Of a DNA stretch of 64,000 nt, positions 1 to 61,575 are shown in pieces. Below the pieces are notes generated by a model. It was not told the origin of the DNA. It saw nothing but the letters and a program-made list of their open reading frames with translations, and made no database searches. A program made the position numbers and the translations under genes. How positions within the stretch are numbered: position 1 is the stretch's first letter; every line of letters starts with the position of its first letter. This DNA comes from Candidatus Chazhemtobacterium aquaticus (lineage in GTDB: Bacteria; Patescibacteriota; Microgenomatia; UBA1400; Chazhemtobacteraceae). The stretch covers positions 695,927 to 759,926 of the forward strand of contig NZ_CP047901.1 in NCBI RefSeq assembly GCF_009936135.1, read 5' to 3'.

Positions 1-1
1 A

Positions 2-13437: not shown

Positions 13438-13443
13438 GCAGTC

Positions 13444-13469
13444 AGCATATCAGGTCAGCCTGATATGCT
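13444..13469. repeat. perfect 11-bp-stem hairpin next to the tnpA start (putative IS200 end hairpin)
   Basis: agcatatcagg-tcag-cctgatatgct; a second hairpin ccccgcat...atgcgggg lies at about 13477-13527. Confidence 0.55.
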
Positions 13470-13541
13470 CATTCATCCCCGCATTCCATACGCTAACTAC
13501 TCTCGTGTGACGCTATTCCATGCGGGGTTTCCTGTAAGGAA

Positions 13542-13582
13542 GAAAAAACCGCCAGTCGGGTATGGGTATACCAAAACTGGCG
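13542..13582 (-). terminator. rho-independent terminator of the 13622-13996 gene
   Basis: ccgccagt...actggcgg stem followed by a T6 run on the minus strand. Confidence 0.6.
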
Positions 13583-13621
13583 GTCAGGGCCCTTCGCAGT
13601 TGCGATGGCGCACAGGTGCGC

Positions 13622-13996
13622 TTACGAAGGGCGGACGCGGCAGAACATCTCCGGGCTGTCGGGGACAAAGCCGTCTGCGCATTCCAGGTCGAAGACCACT
13701 TCCGGCTGCTCGACGGTGTTGAAGGTGATGCGCGTGACCCCGCTCAGGGAGTAGGGCACATTGCAGGAAGCGTAAACGCTGGGCGACGGGCTGTCAGCGG
13801 GAGGAACGAACATTCCCCCAGACCAGCCGTTGTCCAACACTTCCGTTGCGCACATCACGCGAGAACCGTCGGCGTAGAAGACGATCAGTCCACCGGGTTG
13901 CGACAGATCAACCTCATCCTGCGCCTGAATGGCCGAGCCACCCAGTGCCAGCATGAGAATCACTGCCATAAAAAGTACGCGGTTAACCTTGTTCAT
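13622..13996 (-). CDS. secreted hypothetical protein on a GC-rich (about 60%) foreign segment
   Basis: Signal peptide MNKVNRVLFMAVILMLALGGSAIQA; SD AGGAGGT 6 nt upstream; local GC and G content differ from the rest of the window. Confidence 0.55.
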   Translation of the reverse strand: MNKVNRVLFMAVILMLALGGSAIQAQDEVDLSQPGGLIVFYADGSRVMCATEVLDNGWSGGMFVPPADSPSPSVYASCNVPYSLSGVTRITFNTVEQPEVVFDLECADGFVPDSPEMFCRVRPS

Positions 13997-14220
13997 CTCG
14001 TACCTCCTGTACGTCTATAGGTTATCCGATATTTATTAATATACAACAAAGTCATCCTCTTGTCAAGTGTTATGGGTCTCTAGGGGGCAAAAATCAATAC
14101 AGCTAAACTGCTACTCAACTGGTATCAGAATACCAAATCCCCTCCTCCTGTCAACTCGGGTACACATCAAGCCATTCTATGTGTCAACCCCCACGCTACT
14201 AAATAACTACTCAACCAGCT

Positions 14221-14289
14221 ACAATATTCCCTATGCAGACTGTTATTAACAACACTCTTACTCACTATCTGCTTATCAAATCCTACCGC
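14221..14289. repeat. about 70-bp imperfect direct repeat copy 1 (matches 17381-17459, the start of the hydrolase gene)
   Basis: tcaaccagctacaatattcc[c/t]tatgcagactgttattaaca[a/c]c[a/g]ctcttactcactatctgct[t/c]atcaa. Confidence 0.85.
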
Positions 14290-14302
14290 TAGACAACTAC
14301 TC
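14243..14302 (+). pseudogene. 19-codon duplicate of the N-terminus of the alpha/beta hydrolase gene (MQTVINNTLTHYLLIKSYR*)
   Basis: Sequence identity to 17403.. including 22 bp of upstream sequence. Confidence 0.65.
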
Positions 14303-14531
14303 TATCAGCCCTACACACCCAAGTAGGTGAAACATTTCTACTAAACCCTATTGGAACAAAACCCACCTTGGCTGCTTGATGTATCGTTGCACCAGCCCCA
14401 GAAGAAAAATCTACCCCAGAAAGATCATAACCAATTCTCGAGGACAACCACTCAACATCGGACCATATCCCCCGAACGCAGACTCTACCGTCCCCCATAC
14501 GACCGTTAACCTCCTCCTCAGAAGTCAACAT
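14289..14531 (-). CDS. hypothetical protein or fragment (80 aa)
   Basis: ORF only. Confidence 0.25.
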   Translation of the reverse strand: MLTSEEEVNGRMGDGRVCVRGIWSDVEWLSSRIGYDLSGVDFSSGAGATIHQAAKVGFVPIGFSRNVSPTWVCRADRVVV

Positions 14532-14593
14532 AGCTTGAGTTAATAACTGATTAATGTCAGTTTGAGCATATATGCCTCGGGCTATTGCAAATA

Positions 14594-15079
14594 TCAGTGA
14601 ATCAGATATTTTTTTAATTCTCCAACCCTGGCGTTAAAAAGACGCTTTCCATAACCAAATCCTCTAAATTTTGGGTTTACAACTACATAAGCCAACTCAC
14701 CAGCCCTATCAAACAACCTCGTACCAACTACTTTATCGACCAAATCCCCAAACTTAGCAAGCCGAAATCGCACCGTTCTCCCTAACACATCGTAACCTGG
14801 TTCTAAGTATAACTGATTTTCAATCTTACTCCATTCATATATTTTATAAGTTCCAACCCCTATCAATTCATCATCACTTATGATCACTTTTGCATGCTGT
14901 TCTCCCGAAGTAATACTCTCTCCAAAAATAGAGACACCCCCCTCAATACTCTTATGCCCATAAAATTCTTGTGCTAGAAGTATAACCGAAAGATCTTGAG
15001 CCCAAACAGGAGCATCATGAAAATCCAAAAGCTTATCATCATTACGGAGCGACTCTCTACGCTCACATCCCATCATCAT
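14594..15079 (-). CDS. GNAT-family N-acetyltransferase
   Basis: VVVNPKFRGFGYGKRLFNA acetyl-CoA-binding motif. Confidence 0.6.
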   Translation of the reverse strand: MMMGCERRESLRNDDKLLDFHDAPVWAQDLSVILLAQEFYGHKSIEGGVSIFGESITSGEQHAKVIISDDELIGVGTYKIYEWSKIENQLYLEPGYDVLGRTVRFRLAKFGDLVDKVVGTRLFDRAGELAYVVVNPKFRGFGYGKRLFNARVGELKKYLIH

Positions 15080-15112
15080 AATTTATATTATATAATAACA
15101 GACACCATTTCT

Positions 15113-16392
15113 ATGGCACCAATAACTGAACTCTTGTCACATTTAGACAAATACCCAAACACCCCATATTTATCTTATACAGAAACAAATACACGAATAG
15201 GTAGAGCCATTACAACAAAAAGAACCAGAACTTCAGATATTTGAAGATGAACCAGCTATATACATCCACTACCACAAAAAGCCGTGGCAAAGGAAAATCG
15301 TTATTGACACACATCTTGACCATCCTGGATTTGCGATCAACCATCAAAAAGAGGCAGTTGCAATCGGAACTATCATTGATGCAAGTTTTACAGCTCCAAA
15401 AAACGAGTTGACCCTACCAGTCATTTTTTATGATCCAGAAGGAAATTACATAGACCACAGCGAACTATCAGATTTCCAGGAGAAAAACGGCCGATGAGTA
15501 AGTCAACCACACACGCTTCACCCTGCAAATACCCTTCTACCAAATTCACAAGCCATTGCGTCTCTAAAGGCCTACAATGACCGAGACATGATGTTTATGA
15601 GATCTGCTGATAATCTCGCAACATCCGCCATAATGCTCGAACTAATTGAATGGCTAATAAGTACATCACCAGGGGGAAACATAACATTTATATTCAATAA
15701 ACTAGAAGAAGTAAGACAGGTTTCAGCAACTGGTATTGCCAAACGAAAGCATACAATGTCAGAGCCGATCGACCAAAACACGTTCATTATCATCTTAGAA
15801 GCTGCAAGCGTCGAACCAATACCACTTAGTGAAGCAGTGCACAAAAAAAATGACATATACTGACGGCCCCGTAATCAGGGTCTCCGACGGTGACATCGTA
15901 TATCAACAATCCGACAAAACAAATCAAGCTGAACACCTTGCCCTAAACGCGGCTGCCAACGCCAGGCTTGAGATACAACATGGACCACTTACCAATAACT
16001 GCAACTCCACACCACACATTCTTTTTGGTAACACACCACATGTGATTGGTGTTACAATACCCTGCGAACACAAACACAATTTTACAAATGAAGGAACATT
16101 TGAACACGAAGCCATCCGTATCTCTGATTTACACACCACCACAAAACTACTTCAACAGATGATAACTGACATCGATGCCCCCATCAAACGAAACACTTCA
16201 GCATTGCTAGAACAAATATACCCGGTCTACCGACTTGATCCACAATCTTTAACATCAAAGAGAAAGCTCTGGTCACAATCGTACGCATGGGCACTACCCA
16301 GACTTCAGAGCGGACAACTCTTCCCAACCAATCAACTCTCAGCAACAAGATTAAGACTAAAACATATCAAAGCATCTATACAAAGTCGCTAA
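15113..16392 (+). pseudogene. M42-family metallopeptidase pseudogene (two frameshifts and one in-frame TGA)
   Basis: Peptidase-like segments lie in different frames: ..VIDTHLDHPGFAI.. (frame 0), an in-frame TGA at 15495-15497, ..RSADNLATSAIMLELIEWL..FIIILEAASVE.., then a frameshift inside an A8 run (15843-15850) into ..IGVTIPCEHKHNF..EAIRISDL.. Confidence 0.5.
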
Positions 16393-17318
16393 TGTATCCC
16401 GTCACCTGCTACTACCCAAAACTCTATGACACCCTTGTGCACCACAATGCTGATAAAACAATAACCTATCAACTTGACCAAATTGAAAAAACCAAATGGC
16501 TCTATTACAAACTAAAAACTTCCCCAAATTACGATACCCAAGTAGTAAACAGCTCAGATGACTCAGTTTTAAACCTCTGCCACTCATCCAAATACCTAAA
16601 CTCACTCAAAACCGGCAAACCTCAACCCCTAGCTGAAACATCAGGACTCATCTGGCAAAAAAATCTATATCCCGCCCATGTTAACTCCGTCTGGTCTTCG
16701 ATAAAATCCTCCATCTCCGCCCTAAACAAAAACATCTCGATGACCTTAACCAGTGGCGGCCATCACGCAGTTGCAGACAGAGGTTATGGCTTCAACCCCA
16801 TCAACACCATTGCTCTAACTACTAAGTATCTACTAACCAACAAGATCATAAACAACATAGCCATCCTTGATCTAGACGTTCACCTCGGCAACGGCACAAT
16901 CGAACTCCTTCAGCACACCTCCAATATCCACATCTTTGACATTTACCGATACACCAAACCAGAGTGGATTACTCGACTACCATCCACACTTCCTGATAAC
17001 ATCCGTGTCTATCAAACCGATTCCACGAACCAATATTTTAAACAGCTGGAGTCGTACCTTGCCCAAATTAAAAAGCTCAATCCTGGTTTAGTTATTTACC
17101 ACCACGGAGTTGATGTTTACAAAAATGATCGCTATGGCGGCATTCTCAAATTTTCTGAAGAAAAAATTCATCTCCGCGAGCGTCTACTCCTTAAATCTCT
17201 TTACCGTCATGTCCCGATTATGATTATTCTTGGAGGTGGTTATGTTAAATACGACAATCCAAGTCTCACCACCTCACGCAAAAAACACCCTCCACCGCCT
17301 CCACACCATCTTCTTTGA
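16392..17318 (+). CDS. histone deacetylase-family (HDAC/AcuC/acetylpolyamine amidohydrolase-like) protein
   Basis: SGGHHAVADRGYGFNPIN and ILDLDVHLGNGT match the HDAC signature; start overlaps the preceding stop (TAATG). Confidence 0.7.
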   Translation: MYPVTCYYPKLYDTLVHHNADKTITYQLDQIEKTKWLYYKLKTSPNYDTQVVNSSDDSVLNLCHSSKYLNSLKTGKPQPLAETSGLIWQKNLYPAHVNSVWSSIKSSISALNKNISMTLTSGGHHAVADRGYGFNPINTIALTTKYLLTNKIINNIAILDLDVHLGNGTIELLQHTSNIHIFDIYRYTKPEWITRLPSTLPDNIRVYQTDSTNQYFKQLESYLAQIKKLNPGLVIYHHGVDVYKNDRYGGILKFSEEKIHLRERLLLKSLYRHVPIMIILGGGYVKYDNPSLTTSRKKHPPPPPHHLL

Positions 17319-17380
17319 AGAACTTGAGAAACAAACAAATGAATTATCATCAACATTCTAGAAAACTAGCCCCCCTCCCC

Positions 17381-17459
17381 TCAACCAGCTACAATATTCC
17401 TTATGCAGACTGTTATTAACACCGCTCTTACTCACTATCTGCTCATCAACCCCAAAGCC
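17381..17459. repeat. about 70-bp direct repeat copy 2 (native start of the hydrolase gene)
   Basis: See 14221-14289. Confidence 0.85.
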
Positions 17460-18164
17460 AAAAAGACTGCCATCCTTCTCCATGGTTGGGGTCACAACTC
17501 TTCACTTTGGCAACAAGCTGTTCTTGAGTTTGACTCGCGATACCGATACTATCTGCTCGATCTTCCTGGTTTTGGCAGTACTCAAAACCTTCCCCCCGGT
17601 GCCGACATCCCCGAATTTACTCAGTTTGTTTTAAGCTTCATCAAAAAAATGAAAATTAAACAACCTCTTGTTATCGGTCACTCCTTTGGCGGCCAAATTG
17701 CTATAGACCTAGCTGCCTCATATTCCAATCTGCTCTCCGCCCTCATCCTTATAGCCCCGGCTGGTATCAGGACCATAGACCCCAAACTAAATCTCAAGGT
17801 TTACCTCATAAATCACCTTGCTCGCCTCTATCGTCCAATTAAAAAGGCAATTCCTTTTCTGGCTCACACCCCCTTAACCAACAATCTCGCCTCGGCAGAT
17901 TACAAAGCTGCTTCTCCCGCCAATCGTCAGGTCTTGAAAAAAATTATCCGCCATGACCTGACTCATAAGCTTAACCAAATCTCTACTCCTACCCTCATCG
18001 TCTGGCCCGAGCTTGATCAAGAACTTCCTAATTTCTCAAGAACCTTAACAGATCATATCCCCAACTCCCGTCTGCGCGTCCTCTATGGCCAAGACCACAA
18101 CCCCCATCTAAACAACCCATCAGAGCTAATCAGTACCATCAATCACTTTCTCTCTACCCTATGA
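17403..18164 (+). CDS. alpha/beta-fold hydrolase
   Basis: GHSFGG nucleophile-elbow motif; 253 aa. Confidence 0.7.
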   Translation: MQTVINTALTHYLLINPKAKKTAILLHGWGHNSSLWQQAVLEFDSRYRYYLLDLPGFGSTQNLPPGADIPEFTQFVLSFIKKMKIKQPLVIGHSFGGQIAIDLAASYSNLLSALILIAPAGIRTIDPKLNLKVYLINHLARLYRPIKKAIPFLAHTPLTNNLASADYKAASPANRQVLKKIIRHDLTHKLNQISTPTLIVWPELDQELPNFSRTLTDHIPNSRLRVLYGQDHNPHLNNPSELISTINHFLSTL

Positions 18165-20736: not shown

Positions 20737-20759
20737 TATATCCTCTTTACCTCCTATCC

Positions 20760-20996
20760 TTAAACCCTTTGGGCAAACGGCAATATAGCCAACACTCTAG
20801 CTCTCTGCACTTCTCGAGTCACTCTTCGCTGGTGCTTCTGACACACACCAGTTCTCATTCTCGATACCAACCGACCCTTAGACGACAAATACTTTGACAA
20901 CACCTCAATTTCCTTATAATCAGGCTCCTTCATGTTCACACAAAAGTAACAAGGCTCCTTTGATCTTCTGATTTTCTTTTTTACTGGTGTTGCCAT
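20760..20996 (-). CDS. rpsR: 30S ribosomal protein S18
   Basis: CYFC...GRLVSRMRTGVCQKHQRRVTREVQRARVLAILPF. Confidence 0.85.
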   Translation of the reverse strand: MATPVKKKIRRSKEPCYFCVNMKEPDYKEIEVLSKYLSSKGRLVSRMRTGVCQKHQRRVTREVQRARVLAILPFAQRV

Positions 20997-21017
20997 TTTT
21001 ATTTACTACTAATTACT

Positions 21018-21554: not shown

Positions 21555-21582
21555 ATTCTTTTATTACCGAAAAACTAAAAAG

Positions 21583-24502: not shown

Positions 24503-24577
24503 AAACCGCTTTTTCCACCGCAAGTCCTATAAAATGATAAAATATACTTCTCGTACCTAATATTGTGGAGATTAATC

Positions 24578-24697
24578 ATGGTTGAAGTACTTGTGATCAT
24601 TGCTCTCTTGATCTCAGTAGGATCAGGAGTTCTCTATCTGATCAGCCGCATGCCACTTACTGAGGAAGACTTCGACGAATTCGACCTCTACCACTAA
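24578..24697 (+). CDS. 39-aa single-TM peptide
   Basis: GGAG SD; MVEVLVIIALLISVGSGVLYLISRMPLTEEDFDEFDLYH. Confidence 0.4.
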   Translation: MVEVLVIIALLISVGSGVLYLISRMPLTEEDFDEFDLYH

Positions 24698-24707
24698 GGA
24701 GATTGTC

Positions 24708-24821
24708 ATGTCGCCAGGAGCACTGTTTGTTATAGCCTTGGCTATTGTTCTAGGCTTCAACCTGTATCTGGCCTCGAAGCCAAAAAACAAACCCCCCGAC
24801 GACCGGGAGTTCTACAAGTAG
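24708..24821 (+). CDS. 37-aa single-TM peptide
   Basis: AAGGAG SD 6 nt upstream; MSPGALFVIALAIVLGFNLYLASKPKNKPPDDREFYK. Confidence 0.45.
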   Translation: MSPGALFVIALAIVLGFNLYLASKPKNKPPDDREFYK

Positions 24822-24880
24822 ACTTCCACCCACTGGCTGGTGCCATCTTCACCTTGGCACCAGCCTTCTTTCGTTAACGA

Positions 24881-29309: not shown

Positions 29310-29347
29310 AAAAAAAACGGCGAGTCGTTTTTAACAAAACTCGCCGT
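29310..29347 (-). terminator. rho-independent terminator
   Basis: acggcgagt/actcgccgt 9-bp stem with a T8 run on the minus strand. Confidence 0.6.
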
Positions 29348-29365
29348 CAACACGAAACGGTCTGC

Positions 29366-29647
29366 TCAGATGTAGGCAGGCTCCCAGGTTAACAGTTCCA
29401 ACCACTGTTCATCACTGTCAGGCTGGACACTGACTGTCACCTCAGAACACATGCGAGTCACTATCTCTAGCAACTCATCCCGAGTGACAGCTTTACCGAA
29501 AGGAACTCCGGCCTTAACCGCTCTGGCGACCACTTCACGGGCCATTGCTGCAATCTGGTCTGGAGGCAGATAGTTAAATTCCACTGACTCCACCATCAGC
29601 TTAATGACCCTGACCTTAAAGTACTCCTCGCTTATTACGTACAGCAC
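29366..29647 (-). CDS. hypothetical 93-aa protein on a compositionally atypical cassette
   Basis: GTG start with AAAGGAG SD; own terminator; inserted between dnaX and ybaB. Confidence 0.5.
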   Translation of the reverse strand: MLYVISEEYFKVRVIKLMVESVEFNYLPPDQIAAMAREVVARAVKAGVPFGKAVTRDELLEIVTRMCSEVTVSVQPDSDEQWLELLTWEPAYI

Positions 29648-29703
29648 GGCAGAACTCCTTTCTACCTTAAGTTACCAGTATTTTACCACTATATAGGATA
29701 CTT

Positions 29704-31364: not shown

Positions 31365-31393
31365 TTGCAAAATTATTTTTATCATGTTATACT
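31365..31393 (+). promoter_or_regulatory. sigma70-like promoter (TTGCAA-17-TATACT)
   Basis: Near-consensus -35/-10 with 17-nt spacing, 48 nt upstream of the 31442 ATG. Confidence 0.45.
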
Positions 31394-31441
31394 ATAGGTC
31401 CGCAACCAGCGGATTGCACATATATTGCTAAGGAGCACAGA

Positions 31442-31630
31442 ATGGCTAAGAATGCTCACGGTGAAAAGCTCTGCAGGTGTGGGGTGCCGTTAAGATGGCA
31501 TCCAGCAGGCTGCCCCTCCGCGAAGGACCTGCCCAAGGTTCTCGCCAAAATCGAGAAAGAACGGCAAGCAAGAGAGGCCCAAGAAGCCGCTCGAACCACC
31601 GTTCCTGAAGCAGCCGCTGCAACAGACTGA
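31442..31630 (+). CDS. hypothetical 62-aa Cys-containing protein (GC-rich cassette)
   Basis: AAGGAG SD; CRCG...HPAGC; about 58% GC and G-rich, unlike native plus-strand genes. Confidence 0.5.
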   Translation: MAKNAHGEKLCRCGVPLRWHPAGCPSAKDLPKVLAKIEKERQAREAQEAARTTVPEAAAATD

Positions 31631-31662
31631 TCACCACTCCCCTAGCTCTTCTTTCTTTTTTC

Positions 31663-31704
31663 AGCCACCCTGCGAAATACTTTCAAAGGGTGGCTCCTTT
31701 TTTT
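31663..31704 (+). terminator. rho-independent terminator
   Basis: agccaccc/gggtggct stem followed by T7. Confidence 0.65.
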
Positions 31705-31711
31705 CTAGAAT

Positions 31712-36007: not shown

Positions 36008-36032
36008 ATTGTAACTTAAATCTACTCAAGCC

Positions 36033-36074
36033 AAAAAAAGAACCGCCAAGAGGTATGTTGCTGCCACTTGGCGG
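36033..36074 (-). terminator. rho-independent terminator
   Basis: ccgccaag/cttggcgg stem with T-run on the minus strand. Confidence 0.6.
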
Positions 36075-36264
36075 TCGGTACAACTTTCAGATACTTCCAC
36101 GCGCCAAAGGCATTATGTTTGCAATAGTTTGCTACGCGCCGACGCGTGAACATCGGGCGAGCCCGTATCCTAGACCTAGAAGGTCATCCTGCCCCCGCGT
36201 GTTTTCTCCGAAAGTCAAAAGAACCCCTACATTGTCTCTCCACATCAAATTACTGTCAAGCTAA

Positions 36265-36304
36265 CAAAAAAAGCCGCCGGATTTAAGTAAAAAATCTCGG
36301 CGGC
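36265..36304 (-). terminator. rho-independent terminator downstream of the minus-strand tRNA cluster
   Basis: gccgccgg/tcggcggc stem with T8 on the minus strand. Confidence 0.55.
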
Positions 36305-36489
36305 CTGCCAAGCGGTTCAAACTTGGCGCAGAATAGGATCACCCCCTTTCAGCTCGACGACAATGTGATTGTCAACGTCTCTTTCATTGGGCAATCCTCC
36401 TTTCTCTTCCCCCACCATACCACAAAAAAACCGGTAGCAAAATCACTTAAAGGGGGTGTCCCAAAAAGCCGCTACCGGTAACCAATACA

Positions 36490-36660: not shown

Positions 36661-36767
36661 AGCGGGTAGGAGGACTCGAACCCCCAACCGTCGGTTTCCA
36701 TCAGAAAGCCTGCAGACCTCCCATGAAAACTGGAAAGCGCCGCTCTATCCAATTGAGCTATACCCGC
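36661..36767 (-). tRNA. 107-nt tRNA-like gene with an internal insertion or duplication in the anticodon arm (possibly Arg-UCU or Lys-UUU)
   Basis: Acceptor GCGGGTA/TACCCGC, D-arm GCTC-AATTGGATA-GAGC, T-arm GGGGG-TTCGAGT-CCTCC; 55 nt between D- and T-arms containing near-duplicate TTTTCATGGGA / TTTCTGATGGAAA. Confidence 0.5.
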
Positions 36768-40886: not shown

Positions 40887-41606
40887 ATGGAAATCCTTAA
40901 ATCCTCAGGCACCTATCGCATCCTCACTCCAACCGAAGTACTCCTAAACCAGCTTCTCATCATCGAGGAAGCTGGACGGACCAGTTACCAATCGCAAAAA
41001 GGGTCAATCACTCTGGCTACCGCTACCAAGTTTGTCCGCATGCTCATCCGCAATGGACACGAAAGTGTCATTGAGCACGGATCACTTTCCGTCAAATTCA
41101 CTGGCGTCTCCCGGGGCTTCACTCACGAAGACGTCCGCCACCGCCTCTCCTCATTCACCCAGGAGTCAACCAGATATGTTGACTACACCAGAGGTGGAGA
41201 TGAACCAGACCTAGAACGCTTTCAGGCCCGATTCATTCTTCCTCCCCACCGCGATGAACAAGAACTCATGACCCGACCAGACGGTAGGCAGATCACCCCA
41301 GCACAGATGTTTGAGGAAGCAGAACAAAACTACCGTACCCTCAGACTTCACGGCTGGAAGCCTCAAGATGCCCGTCAAGTTCTCCCCATAGGCATCGAAT
41401 CCGATCTTGTTCACACCGCCAACTTTAGGGAGTGGCGCCACATCTTTAAGCTAAGAACCGCCAAGGACGCCCACTGGGAAATTCGTCTCGTCATGTGCGC
41501 CCTCCTCCAAGAACTGCAAACTGTTCTACCCGCAGTTTTTGACGACCTCCAATACGCTGGCCAGGACCAAGATGGTCATCCCTACTTTAAAACCGTCAAG
41601 ATCTAG
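40887..41606 (+). CDS. thyX: flavin-dependent thymidylate synthase
   Basis: RHRLSSFTQESTRY (RHRxxSxxxxSxRY) ThyX signature. Confidence 0.85.
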   Translation: MEILKSSGTYRILTPTEVLLNQLLIIEEAGRTSYQSQKGSITLATATKFVRMLIRNGHESVIEHGSLSVKFTGVSRGFTHEDVRHRLSSFTQESTRYVDYTRGGDEPDLERFQARFILPPHRDEQELMTRPDGRQITPAQMFEEAEQNYRTLRLHGWKPQDARQVLPIGIESDLVHTANFREWRHIFKLRTAKDAHWEIRLVMCALLQELQTVLPAVFDDLQYAGQDQDGHPYFKTVKI

Positions 41607-41625: not shown

Positions 41626-41661
41626 CCCCGTCAGGACATGTTGCCTCACGGGGTTTATTTT
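41626..41661. terminator. bidirectional stem-loop between convergent thyX and dcd
   Basis: ccccgtcagg...cctcacgggg followed by a T-run. Confidence 0.45.
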
Positions 41662-42212
41662 TACTCACTATCCCAGAACCGGCTCTCAGTTGGACCCATC
41701 TGTCCTTGATAGCGGTTGCCAGCAGTTCCATATGGTCGATTGACCGGACTGCTCATCACAAAAAAGCAGATCTGAGCTACCTTGATTCCCGGACGCAGGA
41801 CGATTGGTACCACGTTGACATTACTCATCTCGAAGGTGATCTGCCCCTCAAAGCCGGGATCAATATATCCAGCAGTCGCGTGGACCACCAGTCCCAACCT
41901 CCCCAGGCTACTCTTTCCCTCAAGTTTAGCCGCCAAATCAATCGGTATCCTGAAACGCTCTACCGTCGAGGCCAGCGCAAACTCGCCAGGATGAAGTACA
42001 AAGCCCAACTCATCAACCTCAACCAACTGAGTCTCCACACGCCTTTTTTGAGCCAAGTCGATATGAGTCATATCATGGCTGGAAAAAAGACGAAACTGAC
42101 TACCCAGACGAACATCATAAGTTGACGGCTGGACACACTCCGGGTCAAACGGGTCAATCAGTAACGAATGAGTCGCCACTCGCTCCAGCATATCCCTGTC
42201 AGACAGTATCAT
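41661..42212 (-). CDS. dcd: dCTP deaminase
   Basis: 183 aa; dUTPase-superfamily pattern (..YDVRLG..GYIDPGFEGQITFE..). Confidence 0.8.
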   Translation of the reverse strand: MILSDRDMLERVATHSLLIDPFDPECVQPSTYDVRLGSQFRLFSSHDMTHIDLAQKRRVETQLVEVDELGFVLHPGEFALASTVERFRIPIDLAAKLEGKSSLGRLGLVVHATAGYIDPGFEGQITFEMSNVNVVPIVLRPGIKVAQICFFVMSSPVNRPYGTAGNRYQGQMGPTESRFWDSE

Positions 42213-44330: not shown

Positions 44331-44927
44331 CTAAAACGACCACTCATCCACCCCTTCATTAATCAACAAATCAGTTCCCGGCGATCCTCTTACTACCCAT
44401 ACTTTTCTATTTAACTCTGCAGCCCAGTTTGCTGTTGTCATTGTCCCCGACTTAATTTCTGCTTCGATCACCACCACTCCCAAACACATTCCCACAATCA
44501 ACCTATTTCTTAACGGAAAAAAGTATCTCTCCGGTCTTACTCCTTCTTCTAACTGGCTCACCAAAGCCCCACCTGCTTCAACTATTTTTTCAGCCAATCC
44601 AGCATTCTCTCTTGGATACACCCAATCCAATCCATGTGCTAATACTGCTACCGTCCTACCCCCCAAACGCAAACACTCTCTATGTGCCACGCTATCAACT
44701 CCTCTAGCCAACCCAGAAACCACTACCATCTCCATATCCACCAACTGCTTAACCACTCTTCTAGTCACTTCCTCACCCTTAACACTCATCTTTCTTGATC
44801 CCACTACCGCTACCATTTTTTCAAGCAAAACCTTACTCTCACCCCTTACATACAACCTGTCTGGATGATTAACCACCTCCAACAACAACGGTGGATACAC
44901 CTGACTATCTACATCAATTTCCCTCAC
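44331..44927 (-). CDS. dprA: DNA processing protein DprA/Smf (short form)
   Basis: VVGSRKMS..GEEV...SGLARGVDSVAH Rossmann-like DprA core. Confidence 0.7.
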   Translation of the reverse strand: MREIDVDSQVYPPLLLEVVNHPDRLYVRGESKVLLEKMVAVVGSRKMSVKGEEVTRRVVKQLVDMEMVVVSGLARGVDSVAHRECLRLGGRTVAVLAHGLDWVYPRENAGLAEKIVEAGGALVSQLEEGVRPERYFFPLRNRLIVGMCLGVVVIEAEIKSGTMTTANWAAELNRKVWVVRGSPGTDLLINEGVDEWSF

Positions 44928-45291
44928 TCCTTTAATTTATCAAATATCCATATCCCAAGGTCAAAAAAAGACCTGGTTATATTGGGAAAAGCTGTGTGTG
45001 AGTCGCCCCACTTCTCCACGGCGGTTGCCGCTGCGTTTCTATCCCTAACCAGGTCAATCTTCAAATAAGAGGCTGCAATGCTCTTCGTCCAGATCCCTCT
45101 GGGCAATTTGCATTTTTGCAGGTTCAGTCAAGAGTTCAAGCAAACCGCAGATTATCTGCCAGAGTCATCCTTTTGAGGAAATCGTCTGTTTGCAGGTTCA
45201 CCAAACTACTTGAAAAAACCACAGCCTCACATCTTTCAATGTATGGATGTAATATACCAAAAATAGTCTTAAATGTCAATAATATAGGCTG

Positions 45292-52807: not shown

Positions 52808-52810
52808 TCC

Positions 52811-53743: not shown

Positions 53744-53745
53744 GT

Positions 53746-54003: not shown

Positions 54004-54041
54004 TTAAAAACCACTTACCATCACCTGATACAATAATAGCC

Positions 54042-55926: not shown

Positions 55927-55981
55927 AAGTATACCATATTAGTCCGATAGTATAAAGCTGGCTGTCTTAATAATCCTTCAT

Positions 55982-57193
55982 TTGCCTTTATACGTAAATT
56001 TAGGCTATATTAAAATCATGCCCGACCAACCCGATCCCCACAGCCTTAATCTACCACCTGGTTTTGGTGACACAGACTCCGACACGCCATCCAGTTCTTC
56101 GGATGATACCCCACCAACTCCTTCATCCAATCAAGACGCAGACAAATCATCAAAATCAGATCAAGACAAAAATACCTCCAACCCCCCTACTTTCTCTACA
56201 TCCTCATATCCACCACCTCCACCTCCACCCCCACCGGCATCCTCAACCCCATCCTCGTCTCCTACCTCAACCCCACCCGCTAATCCAACCCCAACACCAC
56301 CTACTCCACCATCTTTATCTCGAGATGAGAGCTCAACCCCCAATCGACCCAGCCTCATTGGATCCTACTCACCTCCTACTGATCTTAAAGCCAATCCTGA
56401 CCCAGTCTCTGATCACCTTAAGCCAGCCTCAACAAACAATCTTCATCCCAAACCTGTATCTAGCCTTTTTATCCTAGCTCTTGCCGGCATTGCCATCCTC
56501 ACCATCGCCCTCTCCGCCTTTCTCTACCTTCAAAACAACGCCCTTAAAAAGCAAGTTAACATTCTTCAGTCAACAGAAGCGGGTAGACAACTTTCTCCCA
56601 CCGATCAAGACTCACCCCCTGAAAACGATCAAACACCAGAAACTCAACCCACAGAATCATCTACTACCGAACCAGTCACCCTCTCATCTGCCTTCACTAA
56701 CTTAGCCAAAGTTATCGACATCGCCCGCCAAAAATACTCTACCGCCCAGCTTCTAATGATTACCACCGACAATCTATTAACCCTTGAAAACAACGTCTAT
56801 CGTTACTGGTTCCGCCAGGCCCCTGATGCCAAAAGCTACTTCTATATCCAATACTCACAAAACGAAGATCCCCAGCTAGTTATCAACGCCATCATTAATC
56901 CTGATAATAATATTCCTGACCTTATTCCACTCTTTGAACAAAACCAACTCGGAGTTTCCGATATAGATGCCCACGCCATTGCTTGGTCCAAGGCTATCTC
57001 ACCCACTATCACAAATCTTACCCCATCATCTGTCAAAGCCAAATTCATCCGCGCTATTCCCAGCAACACCACCACAACTGAGACCACCAACATCTGGCAA
57101 CTCACCTACTCATTTCCGCAGCAGGCCAATCAAAAAGACATCGTTGTTCAGATCGACTCCACCACTCAAGAAGTCCTTTACTCCACCCTTTAA
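55982..57193 (+). CDS. Pro/Ser/Thr-rich membrane protein
   Basis: Low-complexity PPPPPPPPPAS N-terminal half, one TM, extracellular C-domain. Confidence 0.4.
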   Translation: MPLYVNLGYIKIMPDQPDPHSLNLPPGFGDTDSDTPSSSSDDTPPTPSSNQDADKSSKSDQDKNTSNPPTFSTSSYPPPPPPPPPASSTPSSSPTSTPPANPTPTPPTPPSLSRDESSTPNRPSLIGSYSPPTDLKANPDPVSDHLKPASTNNLHPKPVSSLFILALAGIAILTIALSAFLYLQNNALKKQVNILQSTEAGRQLSPTDQDSPPENDQTPETQPTESSTTEPVTLSSAFTNLAKVIDIARQKYSTAQLLMITTDNLLTLENNVYRYWFRQAPDAKSYFYIQYSQNEDPQLVINAIINPDNNIPDLIPLFEQNQLGVSDIDAHAIAWSKAISPTITNLTPSSVKAKFIRAIPSNTTTTETTNIWQLTYSFPQQANQKDIVVQIDSTTQEVLYSTL

Positions 57194-57220
57194 CTCTTAT
57201 TCTCCAAACATTCAAATTTG

Positions 57221-57293
57221 AGCCGAGACAGGGAATCGAACCCTGGACCCCGATCTTACCATGATCGTGCTCTACCGACTGAGCTATCTCGGC
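57221..57293 (-). tRNA. tRNA-Thr(GGU)
   Basis: Canonical cloverleaf; anticodon loop AUGGUAA. Confidence 0.85.
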
Positions 57294-57330
57294 CAATTAC
57301 TATGTTAAAAGTAGAATCATATCTCTACTG

Positions 57331-57413
57331 TGCTGGGGGAGGGATTCGAACCCCCGTAGGCTTAAGCCAGCGGATTTACAGTCCGCCCCCGTTGACCGCT
57401 TGGGTACCCCAGC
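57331..57413 (-). tRNA. tRNA-Tyr(GUA)
   Basis: Class II with long variable arm GGCTTAAGCC; anticodon loop CUGUAAA. Confidence 0.85.
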
Positions 57414-57469
57414 ATGCCCTTCAATTTTAACATGTTACAAGCACAAAATGTTAAAATTAATAGGCCTAA

Positions 57470-57545
57470 GCCGGCATAGCTCAGCAGGTAGAGCAACGCT
57501 TTTGTAAAGCGAAGGTCAGAGGTTCGATTCCTCTTGCCGGCTCCA
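57470..57545 (+). tRNA. tRNA-Thr(UGU)
   Basis: Canonical cloverleaf with encoded CCA; anticodon loop UUUGUAA. Confidence 0.85.
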
Positions 57546-57601
57546 AAAAGTAATAGACACCACAAATCAACTCTTACAACAAAGTTATAATAAATCTAGT
57601 A

Positions 57602-57907
57602 ATGAACACACTTATATCCGGCACAATCGCGGGCCTCATTTTCGGAGTTGTTGACGTTTTGTTAATGGTTCCACTTCCCATAAGGGATAAGCCGGTTGCG
57701 ATGCTTGGCTCCTTTATAAATCGCTTTGCAATCGGTTTCCTTATCGCCACCACCAACATCCCTCTACCACCCTGGCTTAAGGGTGCATCAATTGGATTGC
57801 TTCTCAGTCTACCTGATGCGATTATCACCAAAACATACCTTCCCATCATCGGAGTGGGGACTACAGGTGGACTAATTATTGGTAGCCTGCTTGGCGCGCT
57901 TAACTAA
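57602..57907 (+). CDS. small polytopic membrane protein
   Basis: Three hydrophobic segments. Confidence 0.4.
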   Translation: MNTLISGTIAGLIFGVVDVLLMVPLPIRDKPVAMLGSFINRFAIGFLIATTNIPLPPWLKGASIGLLLSLPDAIITKTYLPIIGVGTTGGLIIGSLLGALN

Positions 57908-58037
57908 ATATCAAAATTCACAAAACTTCACACCCAAAACATTTTCCCGATGGATCGGACTATAAAGTCAATTAAGCCACACAACTCAACACGTTATAAC
58001 TATGAACAACTCACAATATTTACAGTGTCAACCACAA

Positions 58038-58826
58038 CTATCTACTCCAACCCATCGCCATCACATTAACCGCCTCCCATAGGTTTGCAACCACTCTTAC
58101 TCCATCGGGCAACTCAACCTCACCAACAGGGACACTCTTGGCATTTATCCAAAATATATTCTCACCAGGAACCCCTGCCTCAACAGCGGTTAAGACATCA
58201 GATCTTAAGCTATCACCCACAACCACCACCTCGTTTGGGCCAACACCCAAACTACTAAGCACACTCCCACACTCCTTTGGCTTATCAACATCTACCGCAT
58301 ACACCCCACCACTAAAAACCCGCTCCAACCCTAGATGCATCATCATCTTCCTTCCAGTCCAATCTGTGTCAGCGTGAGTCCAGGCTGCCACCCGAATACC
58401 CCTCAAGCCCTTCAAAACAGGCCAACTCATCTCCGCCTCAGCATAAAGTGGCAAGAAGTCATCAAATATCTCCAGTATTGAACCATATGCCATTGCCAAC
58501 GCCATCTTATCCTCCAGCCCATACCTTCTATACAAATCAGCCACCGCAGCTGGCATAATCAAAGGATTAACCTCCATCACCGACCGTCTCGCCAATATCG
58601 CTGACAGCAAATCATCAAACACCTGCTCAGTCTCCTTACCAGCCATCGGCGCAAATACTTGGGCTACCTCACTCATCCTTCTCTCATATACCTCACTAGT
58701 CCTAAACCAAACATCATCCAAGTCAGTGATCACCACCCCTGCACTACCCAACTGCTTCTCCAGGCTTTGCTCCAAGCCTAAACTCAAACCTTCCACCTTT
58801 ATCAAACCCTCGGTTTTCATTCCCAT
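58038..58826 (-). CDS. HAD-superfamily hydrolase
   Basis: VVVVGDSLRSDV motif IV; N-terminal DxD-type motif. Confidence 0.55.
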   Translation of the reverse strand: MGMKTEGLIKVEGLSLGLEQSLEKQLGSAGVVITDLDDVWFRTSEVYERRMSEVAQVFAPMAGKETEQVFDDLLSAILARRSVMEVNPLIMPAAVADLYRRYGLEDKMALAMAYGSILEIFDDFLPLYAEAEMSWPVLKGLRGIRVAAWTHADTDWTGRKMMMHLGLERVFSGGVYAVDVDKPKECGSVLSSLGVGPNEVVVVGDSLRSDVLTAVEAGVPGENIFWINAKSVPVGEVELPDGVRVVANLWEAVNVMAMGWSR

Positions 58827-58900
58827 AATTTACCAGAAAAAGGCATCCTTGTCTCCATGATCCACCCCAAACTAAAAAACTTACTCAAGCCTATATATCC

Positions 58901-59572
58901 CTACTCACCCAAAACTATCCTCGCAATTATCTCACCATCATCTTCCAACTCACCAGATATTGTGGCAATCTCCAGTTCATCCAACACATCGTCCATTAGT
59001 ACCTCAATCTTGTCCTCATAACCAGACCTAACATACAACTCATTACCCGGTACCGTCTCAGCATTACCCACACTAATCTCTTCATAACCCAACCCCTCAA
59101 AAGCAACCATAGTCTCCGCCGCCAATCCAGCCACCCCAGATCCATTCAATATCTCCAAGCTTATCTCATTTCTCTCAAGCTGCTCAGTCTCAGTAACCTC
59201 AATCTCATCCTCTACTACGGGCTCTTGAACTGTCTGCTCCTCACTTTCCATCTGATTTGCCGCCAACTCCTGTCTTCTCATCCATTCGCTTCGAACATAC
59301 ATCATCCAACCAGTTACTGACAAGATTAGTAAAGCAATCACAGCAATCATCAACATCCCCGAACCATTCTTCCCACTATCACTCACTCCACTCATAGCAG
59401 ACCCATTACTACCAGACATACCTACCACCTCACCGATAGGGGAGGTGTCCTCTTCTACTCCTTCATCCTTAGTCTTCTCATCATCTGCATTATCCTCATC
59501 CTTAACTACTTCCACCACCAACCTTCTTCCAGTCTCAAGTTCTTTTGTATCAGATTCCTTATCTTTCTTCAT
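58901..59572 (-). CDS. LytR_C-domain cell-envelope protein
   Basis: TM anchor and C-terminal ISLEILNGSGVAGLAAETMVAFEGLGYE LytR_C-like domain. Confidence 0.55.
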   Translation of the reverse strand: MKKDKESDTKELETGRRLVVEVVKDEDNADDEKTKDEGVEEDTSPIGEVVGMSGSNGSAMSGVSDSGKNGSGMLMIAVIALLILSVTGWMMYVRSEWMRRQELAANQMESEEQTVQEPVVEDEIEVTETEQLERNEISLEILNGSGVAGLAAETMVAFEGLGYEEISVGNAETVPGNELYVRSGYEDKIEVLMDDVLDELEIATISGELEDDGEIIARIVLGE

Positions 59573-60791
59573 ATATGACTAGATTAGCACACACCGCCTG
59601 CCATAACCACTTTATCGTCTCCATCCCTATCGTATTTATTTTTCCAACGACAAATATAAATATCCCATACAAATATATACACACCAATCACACATAATAC
59701 TCGTAATTAATACCAAAGTATCTATATTCAAGCAAATACAACTTGCCTATTTTCTATTATCAACCCAAATAACTACAATGATAAAAACCTAGAATAATAT
59801 ATTCACGATCCCTAAAAACTACCCAATCAAGCAATAAAATATTAATTATCTGCACGTCCCAAGCAGGGGAGAAAGCGTACATACCATCATCTAACATCCC
59901 TCATCCCCAAATAATCAATTATTAAATCATCATCAACATCAAACCGGCAGCAAGATCTCCCGATAAAATAGCCACAAAAACCTATAATATGAAAGTCTGC
60001 CACCTATTAAAATCACAAATACAGCTAAAAAAATAGCAAACAACCTATATAATTCCAACCGAAACTTGACAAACTATCAACCAAAGCCAGATCTAATCTG
60101 ATTAATCACACAAACAACATAACCATCACTCAATCATATATACAAACATTAACCAACAACTCAACTCAATCATAATCACAAAACTTTTTTAATTTACTGC
60201 CTTTCTACACGAGTAAACATAAGTTGTTCAAAATCCCGCCCAATATTCAAAAATCGAATTCTCATTCACTACAGCTATTCATCAACCAACTCACATCCGC
60301 GATTCAATAATCAAAAACCCAGGTCAACTCCCCTTATCTATCATCAAATCCCCAACTCCAGGCACAAAAACAGCAGATATTTGAGGCTGAAAACGCTTCT
60401 AGTGGCCCTAGAAACCTCTCTCATAAGAAACTCGAATATCAGGAAGGTCATTATTCCATACAAGATTGCAGTTTTCCCTCGTTTGTTATCTTCGTAACTC
60501 GAACCACCTTTATATTATGTCGCACAATGTTGTAAACCACTTATTGTCAGAAACAAATGTCCACTATCAACTAATACATCACCGACTCTTCATCAACTAT
60601 TGCCGTCTTAACCCAATCTAGGTTTACAATTAACACCTCCTTCCACCTACCCCAGCTCTACCAAGGCCCGTTATCTTAAGAAAATATTAATATACTCATT
60701 TATTTAATAATCACCTCTTAATCAAGACAAACATCACGGAGCCTACATCCACTAACTAGAGAAAAACCTCACTCTCTGCTAAAATACCAAC
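59573..60791. other. 1.2-kb ORF-free, A+C-rich, low-complexity noncoding region
   Basis: No ORF of 60 aa or more in any frame; strong C>G and A>T skew; CA-rich short repeats. Confidence 0.8.
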
Positions 60792-60965
60792 ATGGCCAAA
60801 AAAGGACCCCGACAACTAGCAGGTTTGCGATGTTCTGAATGCAAGAATTTCAACTACATCTCTGAACGCAACCGCACCAACACTCCAGACAAAATCGAAC
60901 TCAAGAAGTACTGTCCTCGTTGTCGTAAACACACCACCCACAAAGAAGTCTCCAAACTAAAGTAA
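60792..60965 (+). CDS. rpmG: 50S ribosomal protein L33 (57 aa; missed by the ORF track)
   Basis: [52 protein letters not shown]; followed by tRNA-Trp as in many bacteria. Confidence 0.85.
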
Positions 60966-61008
60966 ATTCATCCTCAAGACATTTTCACCCTTGTTAAGAT
61001 ACAATATA

Positions 61009-61079
61009 GACCTTAGTTAGGCCCGTAGTGAAACGGCATCACAACTCTCTCCAAAAGAGTTATTCCAGGTTCGAATCCT
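61009..61079 (+). tRNA. tRNA-Trp(CCA)
   Basis: Canonical cloverleaf; anticodon loop CUCCAAA. Confidence 0.85.
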
Positions 61080-61136
61080 GGCGGGCCTGCCCCAATACCT
61101 CTTCCCGAACTAATCTATCCCAAAACACCTCAAAAC

Positions 61137-61149
61137 CCTATAATCTTGA
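61137..61149. repeat. 13-bp direct repeat CCTATAATCTTGA (copy 1)
   Basis: Identical copy at 61563-61575; together they bracket the 61217-61483 cassette. Confidence 0.8.
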
Positions 61150-61216
61150 ATTATCTCCCTCTTTTGAGTAAAATATTACTCGCACACTTTTGTGCCAGTT
61201 CTAAAAGGAGAACATT

Positions 61217-61483
61217 ATGTACCTTTTGCGGCGCAATGAATTTGCCGACCTCCAACCTGGCGAGGAACTCCTCATCCAGGCTGGATGCCCCACCGCCAAC
61301 GGACCCCTGGCTGAAAACAAAACAGTGGTCGTAGCCGCTGTTGACGGCTTCTCCTTCCTCACCACCGAAGGAGATGGGTTCGGGGCCTGTCATTCTGAGG
61401 GTTTTGTCCTCAAGACCGGCAACACTCAGGAAGTCGCCTTGAGCGACAAAGCTCGTCAAATCCTGGACGAACTCGGCCTCTAA
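61217..61483 (+). CDS. hypothetical 88-aa protein (GC-rich cassette)
   Basis: AAAGGAG SD 6 nt upstream of the ATG; about 55% GC and G-rich; strong terminator downstream. Confidence 0.5.
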   Translation: MYLLRRNEFADLQPGEELLIQAGCPTANGPLAENKTVVVAAVDGFSFLTTEGDGFGACHSEGFVLKTGNTQEVALSDKARQILDELGL

Positions 61484-61503
61484 CCTTTCCCCTTCCCTAT
61501 TCA

Positions 61504-61540
61504 CTGGCTACCAGCCACAAAACTGGTGGCCAGTTTTTTA
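61504..61540 (+). terminator. rho-independent terminator
   Basis: 11-bp stem ctggctaccag/ctggtggccag followed by T6. Confidence 0.7.
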
Positions 61541-61562
61541 TATACACCCACCCCTTTTCTAA

Positions 61563-61575
61563 CCTATAATCTTGA
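61563..61575. repeat. 13-bp direct repeat CCTATAATCTTGA (copy 2)
   Basis: See copy 1. Confidence 0.8.

Follow-up and report, generated by a model that had tools for sequence, protein, structure and literature searches.

Small protein genes at fixed sites in the strand-skewed chromosome of Candidatus Chazhemtobacterium aquaticus: evidence for hypervariable expression slots

One strand of the chromosome of Candidatus Chazhemtobacterium aquaticus is 29.8% C and 15.0% G over its full length, a disparity that the genome paper ascribes to mostly unidirectional replication (PMC7143001). In one stretch of 64,000 nucleotides of this chromosome (NZ_CP047901.1, positions 695,927–759,926; hereafter 'the window'), four small open reading frames (ORFs)—ORF124, ORF93, ORF62 and ORF88—were picked out by an initial annotation as foreign in composition and as possible members of a new family of mobile cassettes. 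Our analysis favors another reading, to which we give a probability of roughly 0.6: the flagged ORFs are real, lineage-restricted genes for small proteins that occupy fixed sites and fall into three evolutionary regimes, and are neither a single family nor mobile cassettes.

The first regime would comprise hypervariable expression 'slots', namely those of ORF124 and ORF62 and of two further units, ORF60/ORF38 and TM39/TM37. Each would consist of an invariant scaffold—promoter, 5′ untranslated region (UTR), Shine–Dalgarno (SD) site and terminator—around old, mosaic allele classes held under purifying selection. ORF93 would make up the second regime, an orphan acquired recently and carried through the species in a sweep by recombination; and ORF88 the third, an ordinary member of a rare but wider family. 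Horizontal transfer, genomic islands and the flagged genes themselves are not discussed in the genome paper, which states that genes for mobile elements are absent (PMC7143001).

Composition and signals of the small genes

Plus-strand GC skew stands at about −0.4 to −0.5 per kb across the window. The plus strand is extremely G-poor throughout, regardless of the strand on which the genes lie, and what the initial annotation had said of the native genes was borne out by a reference set of 45 genes on both strands: plus-strand skew at third codon positions (skew3) has a median of −0.68 (range −0.92 to −0.40), and GC content at these positions (GC3) a median of 0.45. The sister lineages Collierbacteria and Beckwithbacteria have the same skew. 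Because of it, the two strands differ greatly in the folding potential of their mRNAs: predicted folding energies per 375 nucleotides are −26 to −67 kcal/mol for the sense RNAs of plus-strand genes, which are C-rich, G-poor and almost without structure, and −65 to −108 kcal/mol for those of minus-strand genes.

The four small ORFs are all present at the coordinates and on the strands first given for them, and all are annotated as hypothetical (ORF124, QHO63714; ORF93, QHO63736; ORF62, QHO63738; ORF88, QHO63775). Three are strong compositional outliers with respect to the reference genes, as had been suspected: ORF124 (GC3 0.74, skew3 +0.17, z about +7.5), ORF62 (skew3 −0.09, z +5.1) and ORF93 (GC3 0.57, skew3 −0.22, z +3 to +4). 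The fourth, ORF88, deviates in GC and GC3 only (GC3 0.63, z +4.6); its skew3, −0.50, is inside the native range, codon positions 1 and 2 account for the low overall skew, and its GC-richness stems mainly from amino acid content.

Each of the four has the SD site expected of it (AGGAGG for ORF124, AAGGAG for the others), and each ends in an intrinsic terminator, a hairpin followed by a T-run, with fold z-scores of −5.3 (ORF124), −2.1 (ORF93), −5.6 (ORF62) and −5.6 (ORF88). The one near-consensus promoter that had been noticed, TTGACA-N17-TATATT upstream of ORF124, matches at 11 of 12 positions and is the top match in its 20-kb chunk of sequence. Promoter-like sites precede ORF62 and ORF88 as well (9/12 each; the range for ORF62, ORF88 and ORF60 is 9–10/12), and the promoter scan found none belonging to ORF93 itself.

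The units were also said to interrupt conserved neighborhoods and, in two cases, to be bracketed by short direct repeats. ORF93 does lie at dnaX/ybaB, ORF62 at ybeY/dnaX and ORF88 at tRNA-Trp/mgtE, but ORF124 lies in no dnaX neighborhood; its neighbors are a remnant of the insertion sequence (IS) IS200 and genes for a 188-amino acid (aa) membrane protein and a 572-aa Cys-rich secreted protein. The repeats are real: CCTATAATCTTGA occurs twice in exact form, at 61137 and 61563, and TTTGGTAT-N4-ATACC twice, at 13559 and 14121, where 0.05 occurrences are expected. They overlap, however, the −35 regions of two adjacent promoters, or else a terminator loop and an upstream palindrome, and other strains have CCTATAGCCTTGA in place of the first copy of the 13-mer. 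Coinciding as they do with parts of promoters and terminators, and varying among strains in one case, they do not look like insertion scars.

The window holds more units of this sort than the four: ORF60/ORF38 (61637–61970), TM39/TM37 (24578–24821) and a 101-aa membrane ORF (57602–57907). Several larger genes are low in skew, too—thyX, dcd, an rve-type IS, IS200 and the 572-aa gene—as are the tRNA regions; a hicA/hicB-like pair is low in overall skew only, its third-position skew being within the native range. No function had been recognized for the small proteins at the outset, and no family in Pfam, PHROG, PADLOC or NCBIfam matches any of them. Searches of the PDB with structural models of ORF124 (beta-rich, predicted local distance difference test score, or pLDDT, 74) and ORF93 (a single-sequence model, helical, pLDDT 72), the two proteins modeled, returned no significant fold match.

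Hypervariable slots and two other regimes

Comparison with metagenomic and genomic contigs from other strains (given L-numbers here) reveals the same architecture four times over, in strains with flanks ~94–99% identical: a near-invariant promoter, 5′ UTR, SD site and terminator enclose a coding core that is divergent. Overall, the alleles of these cores are separated by synonymous divergences (dS) of about 1 to saturation, with ratios of nonsynonymous to synonymous divergence (dN/dS) of 0.05–0.35. Every allele examined is unskewed, and most are GC-rich. The scaffolds of ORF124 and ORF62 are native-looking in composition, by inspection of the sequence; the cores alone are anomalous. The four slots are laid out as follows (CDS, coding sequence):

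13543–14165, minus strand: ORF124 unit, conserved flanks around a hypervariable CDS
14154–14127, minus: second promoter-like site, within the conserved upstream region
14121–14137, minus: palindrome GGTAT-N4-ATACC, in the conserved region upstream
14066–14038, minus: ORF124 promoter
14008–14003, minus: ORF124 SD site
13622–13996, minus: ORF124 CDS, 124 aa, predicted to be secreted, four invariant Cys
13585–13543, minus: ORF124 terminator
31365–31705, plus strand: ORF62 slot, between ybeY and dnaX
31365–31393, plus: ORF62 promoter TTGCAA-N17-TATACT
31397–31416, plus: hairpin in the ORF62 5′ UTR
31430–31435, plus: ORF62 SD site
31442–31630, plus: ORF62 CDS, 62 aa, a Cys-x(1-2)-Cys...His...Gly-Cys core and a charged tail
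31663–31705, plus: ORF62 terminator
61563–62029, plus strand: ORF60/ORF38 slot, adjoining the ORF88 unit
61572–61600, plus: ORF60 promoter TTGACT-N17-TACAAT, from the promoter scan
61637–61819, plus: ORF60, frameshifted in the other allele class
61854–61970, plus: ORF38, predicted small Cys-rich membrane peptide
about 61989–62029, plus: ORF60/ORF38 terminator, from the fold scan
24520–24870, plus strand: TM39/TM37 slot, constant upstream region, constant 3′ end and terminator
24578–24697 and 24708–24821, plus: TM39 and TM37, two tiny predicted membrane-peptide ORFs; core variable

ORF124 is the most fully documented of these. Its flanks are ~100% conserved among strains and its CDS is hypervariable, ranging from 98 to 49% aa identity. 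Twelve relatives, from 98% down to 57% identical, keep the signal peptide and the four invariant Cys, and recombinant alleles are evident among them (P0078 and P0079, for example). Between the window and L106, ORF124 has a dS of 0.97 and a dN of 0.34, versus 0.12 and 0.04 for the adjacent gene; dN/dS is about 0.3. All ORF124 alleles have a GC content of 0.55–0.61 and a sense-strand skew near 0, against about +0.5 in flanking genes on the same strand, and GC3 is 0.65–0.74 in those analyzed by codon position. Scanned with a profile, JGI metagenomes yielded the family solely in this lineage and solely in this slot. The contigs L120/L121, from a distant relative whose flanks are 66–73% identical to the window, carry a homologue at the syntenic site, again of 124 aa, 49% identical, with a skew of −0.11 amid skewed flanks; and its unit has the same design—TTGACA-N17-TATATT, GGAGG and a hairpin terminator. 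Since site and odd composition are alike in so distant a relative, ORF124 is old and not a recent import.

At ORF62, at least three deeply divergent, in-frame allele classes occur beside an identical YbeY protein, all of them retaining the Cys-x(1-2)-Cys...His...Gly-Cys core and charged tail. Within one class dS reaches 0.67 at a dN/dS of 0.05, compared with a dS of 0.13–0.21 for dnaX; between classes dS is saturated. All alleles have a GC content of 0.52–0.60 and a skew of ~0. The divergent alleles were recovered by way of the neighboring gene, the word-indexed homology search having missed them. ORF60/ORF38 falls into two allele classes ~26–29% apart in nucleotides (ORF38: dS 1.29, dN/dS 0.15), with promoter and 3′ end constant, and its alleles are combined with those of ORF88 in mosaic fashion among strains. 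TM39/TM37 has at least three core alleles, and deletion variants besides, in strains with ~95% identical flanks. Judged by such sequence signatures, the slot genes encode real proteins under purifying selection and consist of old, recombining allele lineages.

Directly after the T-run of the ORF124 terminator comes a further element:

13066–13542, minus strand: IS200/IS605 remnant (Pfam Y1_Tnp, E = 5e-27)

Compared with its counterparts in other strains, the tnpA ORF (13066–13437) has lost 128 bp and is truncated. L002, L004 and L108 have the element, L003, L106 and L107 do not, and this patchiness makes it incidental to the ORF124 unit. We considered whether the IS had been the vehicle of ORF124, or ORF124 a passenger of IS200/IS605, and rejected both; the unit exists without the IS in the last three strains.

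The surroundings of ORF124 are themselves changeable. Downstream of it (10731–13012, minus strand), the 188-aa membrane and 572-aa Cys-rich secreted proteins vary among strains, with 35% and 83% aa identity to their L108 counterparts, and the N-terminal two-thirds of the 572-aa gene is low in skew in all strains. Different genes replace this region in L003, and the distant relative L120 has an extra 256-aa secreted protein in a low-skew segment upstream. On either side of an rve-type IS that lies just upstream of the ORF124 unit in L108 (GCA_048500475.1, an 850-kb contig), the skew has opposite signs (positions 1–3600 versus 4800–8400), which indicates that the IS is associated with an inversion or rearrangement in this genome; skew polarity makes such events easy to spot. 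Finally, a 70-bp segment recurs in inverted orientation and at 94% identity at 14210–14279 and 17380–17449 of the window, ~3.1 kb apart, flanking a region adjoining the ORF124 unit that contains a GNAT gene, small ORFs and a histone-deacetylase-like gene.

Positions are fixed in all contigs recovered. ORF93 is always between dnaX and ybaB, ORF62 between ybeY and dnaX, ORF88 and ORF60/ORF38 between tRNA-Trp and mgtE, and ORF124 upstream of the 188-aa and 572-aa genes. (A synteny scan of GTDB species genomes with DnaX was saturated by universal motifs; its best match was 45% identical.) The cassettes are thus not missing from the corresponding loci of related strains, as recent insertions might be. 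Only one absence was found, in L096, and this is not an empty site but a deletion: the ORF88 promoter, SD site and first 11 nucleotides, ATG included, are kept, followed by the T-run of the last terminator. Compared with one another, the units have no nucleotide or protein similarity except one 13-mer shared by two adjacent promoters. They possess no common ends, no attC-like site was seen, and no integrase is present among the window ORFs scanned, the sole rve match being the IS transposase.

These findings leave little of the proposed family of mobile cassettes, and they bear equally on its supposed origin. According to that proposal, all of the units are moron-like cassettes, acquired recently from a GC-richer, unskewed donor and not yet ameliorated. 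The units are strong compositional outliers, it is true; no homologues outside the lineage were found for ORF124, ORF62 or ORF93; ORF93 sits in a trough of diversity and has no relatives; and genes that are clearly accessory—the IS elements, thyX and dcd—lack skew, as well. But ORF124 is syntenic and unskewed in a relative with flanks only 66–73% identical, ORF124 alleles differ at a dS of about 1, promoters and UTRs are conserved across strains and appear native on inspection, and no strain has an empty site, the single secondary deletion apart. Nor did a donor come to light: there were no relatives in the viral contigs of IMG/VR (single-protein and profile scans for ORF124, ORF93 and ORF88, profile scan for ORF62) or in GenBank phage genomes (tblastn), searches that covered phages and viruses and did not extend to plasmids. 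We consider recent acquisition of all the units unlikely. What survives of the idea is that these are small, autonomous expression units of deviant composition that encode proteins of unassigned function; a recent foreign origin is a good hypothesis for ORF93 alone.

The units of ORF93 and ORF88, which exemplify the other two regimes, are arranged thus:

29311–29662, minus strand: ORF93 unit, between dnaX and ybaB
29662–29655, minus: ORF93 SD site GAAAGGAG, with AAGGAG at 29660–29655
29366–29647, minus: ORF93 CDS, GTG start, 93 aa, predicted to be helical
about 29348–29311, minus: ORF93 terminator
61137–61540, plus strand: ORF88 unit, after tRNA-Trp
61146–61174, plus: ORF88 promoter TTGAAT-N17-TAAAAT
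61217–61483, plus: ORF88 CDS, 88 aa, SD site AAGGAG upstream
61503–61540, plus: ORF88 terminator

Among 5.8 billion proteins, ORF93 forms a single cluster at 90% identity, whose 15 aligned members are at least 97% identical. It is found in all strains of the species, and no relatives were found elsewhere. Its synonymous diversity (pS) is 0.011, against 0.035 for ybaB, 0.063 for ybeY, 0.098 for a 141-aa gene and 0.126 for recR. This trough, together with a composition that is intermediate and a site inside the widely conserved dnaX–ybaB–recR arrangement, fits acquisition between dnaX and ybaB in the recent past and then a gene-specific sweep by recombination, which we infer to be the best reading.

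ORF88 diverges at a dS of 0.16–0.20, versus 0.13 for mgtE, with a dN/dS of 0.2–0.3. It has distant homologues in other metagenomes, of 93–101 aa and 35–41% identity, and by these signs it belongs, as an ordinary resident, to a rare wider family. The tRNA-Trp gene next to it (61018–61092) has a second allele in L099 and L103, with several paired, compensatory changes in its stems and flanks that are ~96% identical.

Why the cores remain unskewed

The strand bias appears to be ongoing, because native flanks are fully skewed across the same divergence that separates the window from L120/L121, and so is the hypervariable 188-aa neighbor. Since the slot cores stay unskewed all the same, they must be shielded from the bias or continually renewed. 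Unskewed composition marks coding DNA that is not in equilibrium with ongoing strand-biased substitution; in ORF93 this is probably a matter of youth, and in the slots of a composition actively maintained or renewed over family-level time.

Several causes were tried and set aside. Selection on expression or codon usage is unlikely, for the genes of L31, S6, EF-Ts and RRF have full native skew. Transcription-associated mutation was rejected because skew is lost from genes on either strand, the change running in opposite directions when read on the sense strand. Selection for RNA structure fared no better: fold z-scores are −3.1, −2.6, −0.1 and −1.0 across alleles, compared with a native mean of −0.35 (standard deviation 1.3).

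A more radical form of the RNA idea is that the units are structured non-coding or dual-function RNAs, in which G matches C through base pairing, as in tRNAs, and the ORFs are incidental. The loss of skew in tRNA regions fits, and in the window ORF124, ORF88 and ORF93 do fold better than shuffled sequences (z −3.4, −2.6 and −2.3). ORF62, with a z of −0.6, does not, and the signal is not kept across alleles (−0.1 in L108, −1.0 in L120). No unit has a match in Rfam, even at a permissive E ≤ 1, and within the window only tRNAs pass; SRP RNA (signal recognition particle RNA), 6S RNA and RNase P RNA, considered as candidates near dnaX, were dismissed for want of a match at gathering or permissive thresholds and in the face of clear coding signatures. 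With a dN/dS of 0.05–0.35, in-frame indels, a conserved Cys framework and a signal peptide, the units look like protein genes, and we hold the RNA explanation to be very improbable.

Could recombination itself be responsible? If slots were recombination hot spots, GC-biased repair of heteroduplexes, or biased gene conversion, would oppose the strand-specific G/C loss, raise GC3 and erase skew within the core. The anomalous composition does coincide with the hypervariable core, flanked by invariant sequence that is native-like, and alleles are visibly mosaic. Third positions of ORF124, on the minus strand, and of ORF62, on the plus, each restore the base that is depleted on their own strand, and the window ORF124 and L008-type ORF62 alleles converge on a GC3 of ~0.74–0.77 with a slightly negative sense-strand skew3. 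On the other side, the gene for the 188-aa neighbor is just as hypervariable (dS > 2, window versus L108) and is nonetheless fully skewed, at about +0.5 to +0.6, whereas ORF93 is unskewed but invariant. Polarized substitution spectra, with too few sites to tell amelioration from equilibrium, if anything lean the other way: rare variants of ORF62 and ORF88 comprise 24 strong-to-weak changes (G or C to A or T) versus 11 weak-to-strong, and some native segments are similar. We know of no GC-biased repair effect of such magnitude reported in bacteria, and regard this explanation as doubtful.

Alternatively, the cores might reside for the most part on a phage, plasmid or episome of this lineage that replicates symmetrically and has escaped sampling, and be re-imported from it time and again. 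Such a reservoir would account for a composition that persists despite dS values of about 1 to saturation, and for allele classes that are discrete; the lineage's own IS elements are unskewed, also. Every contig recovered is chromosomal and syntenic, however, there are no matches in viral contigs or phage genomes, and promoter and terminator arms of the same native-like kind would have to be present on the reservoir, too. This strikes us as quite improbable, more so than biased conversion.

Under the reading that we prefer, strains would take up DNA and exchange alleles with one another through homologous recombination, the scaffold serving as anchor. The equipment for uptake may well be at hand: DprA is encoded within the window, and ComEC, ComEA and type IV pili are reported for the genome (PMC7143001). 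Balancing or diversifying selection would then keep the alleles diverse, acting on proteins that are secreted (ORF124), membrane-bound (ORF38, TM39/TM37) or putatively zinc-binding (ORF62), and that probably take part in cell–cell, host–cell or phage interactions of a symbiont or scavenger. A bolder proposition—that these are micro-scale expression slots whose payloads are diversified or exchanged by a dedicated, or strongly biased, process, and stay distinct in composition over family-level time, despite a strand-specific mutation pressure that is among the strongest known in bacteria—we advance tentatively, as an outside chance. The process may be gene conversion targeted at the payloads, repair with a strong GC bias, or re-import from an episome that has escaped sampling.

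A number of points weigh against the reading that we prefer. The slot claims concern a single 64-kb window of a closed genome of 801,504 bp (CPR, the candidate phyla radiation; Microgenomates), and the variants L096, L117 and L010/L012 come from low-coverage assemblies. Selection on expression, codons or RNA structure seems not to explain the persistent composition. Recombination by way of transformation is suggested by mosaicism and gene content, and functions are surmised: the family databases gave no match to any unit protein, nor did the PDB to the ORF124 and ORF93 models. The low diversity of ORF93 could reflect constraint at the nucleotide level rather than a sweep; moreover, the first ORF93 loci were chosen by exact protein match, a bias offset in part by further loci and by prevalence counts.

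Known systems and significance

The closest concept to the slots is the minimal mobile element (MME) of Neisseria (Saunders & Snyder 2002), which by the definition quoted in PMC3787668 is a region of variable content, set between specific conserved flanks and exchanged through transformation and recombination. In the four slots, too, content varies between specific conserved flanks, and the segment lacks mobility genes and terminal repeats of its own. Exchange of Neisseria MMEs is credited to natural transformation and homologous recombination in the flanks; here, the genes for DprA, ComEC, ComEA and type IV pili are present, and mosaic combinations and intragenic recombinants are seen, from which transfer is inferred. 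There are differences. The arms of a slot, tens of bp in length, belong to the unit itself (promoter/UTR and terminator) and are not flanking genes; what alternates between them is a set of divergent alleles, all of one small protein, instead of unrelated sets of genes; and the cores are un-genome-like in composition.

Phage morons, as conceived by Hendrix and Juhala, are single ORFs with a promoter and terminator of their own, deviant in composition and lodged between unrelated genes. ORF124, ORF62, ORF88 and ORF60/ORF38 are autonomous in this same way (for ORF93 no promoter of its own was detected), but their neighbors are housekeeping genes, they have no relatives in PHROG, IMG/VR or GenBank phages, and they occupy the same site in all strains and, for ORF124, in a distant relative. 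Integron cassettes are likewise small, mostly single-ORF units of unassigned function that vary among strains. The units here differ from them in having promoters and terminators, in lacking an attC-like site or common ends, in being dispersed over 48 kb instead of arrayed, and in the absence of an integrase among the window ORFs scanned. Nor do the slots resemble targets of diversity-generating retroelements, for variation spans the whole CDS, including indels and all types of substitution, and searches of the unit regions found no repeat copy of a core, although reverse transcriptase was not specifically scanned for.

At loci such as comC, agrD and those of pneumococcal surface proteins, balancing selection keeps polymorphic alleles in circulation. 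With these the slots have in common old, discrete allele classes, each under purifying selection, as well as recombination inside the gene and flanks that are conserved. The slots have no adjacent genes for a cognate receptor or processing enzyme, the proteins are unrelated, and four independent micro-loci fall within 64 kb and bear a compositional signature. The amelioration model of Lawrence and Ochman envisages transferred ORFans that are small, atypical in GC and skew and free of homologues. It would suit ORF93, and is likely to hold for thyX, dcd and the IS elements. It fails for ORF124, which has undergone no amelioration across family-level divergence, though the bias is apparently ongoing, and is present and atypical in L120/L121; and ORF62 and ORF38 alleles are unskewed despite a dS of about 1 to saturation within one species. 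The micro-architecture as a whole—invariant scaffold, hypervariable core and persistent non-native composition—is, to our knowledge, previously undescribed.

Other inhabitants of the window deserve mention. An rve-family IS transposase gene (9088–10113, plus) is followed by genes for a HicA toxin and a putative HicB partner (10110–10689, plus); both IS transposase genes, the rve-type and the truncated IS200/IS605 tnpA, are unskewed but AT-rich. Adjoining tmk are thyX (40887–41606, plus) and dcd, for dCTP deaminase (41661–42212, minus), with GC contents of 0.51–0.52 and reduced skew; they are likely to be horizontally acquired genes of nucleotide metabolism, and a link between dCTP/dUTP metabolism and the G/C disparity of the genome may merit asking about. 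At 36661–36767 (minus) lies a tRNA gene with a 35-nucleotide insertion or intron (Rfam, 41.7 bits over 107 nucleotides) that ARAGORN misses by default and reports in intron mode as tRNA-Ser(gga) with a 35-nucleotide intron, its identity being uncertain.

Two stretches may specify RNAs. Near 36030–36232 (minus), upstream of a tRNA cluster, the promoter TTGACA-N17-GACAAT and a terminator bound a transcript of ~200 nucleotides that lacks any same-strand ORF of at least 60 aa and has about as much G as C, a fold z of −3.1 and no Rfam match; we view it as a candidate novel small RNA. Just upstream of it, at about 36300–36400, is a tiny, 12-codon ORF led by an SD site and with its own terminator. 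Near 44950–45245 (minus), directly upstream of dprA, the promoter TTGACA-N17-TATATT with a TG motif (11/12, best in its 20-kb chunk) heads a low-skew transcript of ~290 nucleotides, a candidate structured leader or small RNA, with a fold z of −4.6 (0 of 200 shuffles) and no Rfam match; a 60-aa ORF (44924–45106) overlaps it.

An extreme and uniform G/C disparity amounts to a built-in clock and tracer, rendering unequilibrated DNA visible at the resolution of single genes. It exposes ordinary accessory DNA—the IS elements, thyX and dcd—that went undiscussed when the genome was described, and also tiny hypervariable loci with frozen expression signals, whose cores resist the compositional drive. 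In an organism reported to have neither CRISPR nor restriction–modification systems, the small proteins of these loci are candidates for factors that interact with hosts or phages. If what we find in the window is true genome-wide and in the sister lineages, it could show whether biased gene conversion or hidden episomes operate, and whether the skew is mutational and ongoing. And if the slots hold up across the genome and in sister lineages, they would offer a tractable system for studying how small secreted and membrane proteins diversify in uncultured CPR symbionts equipped for competence.

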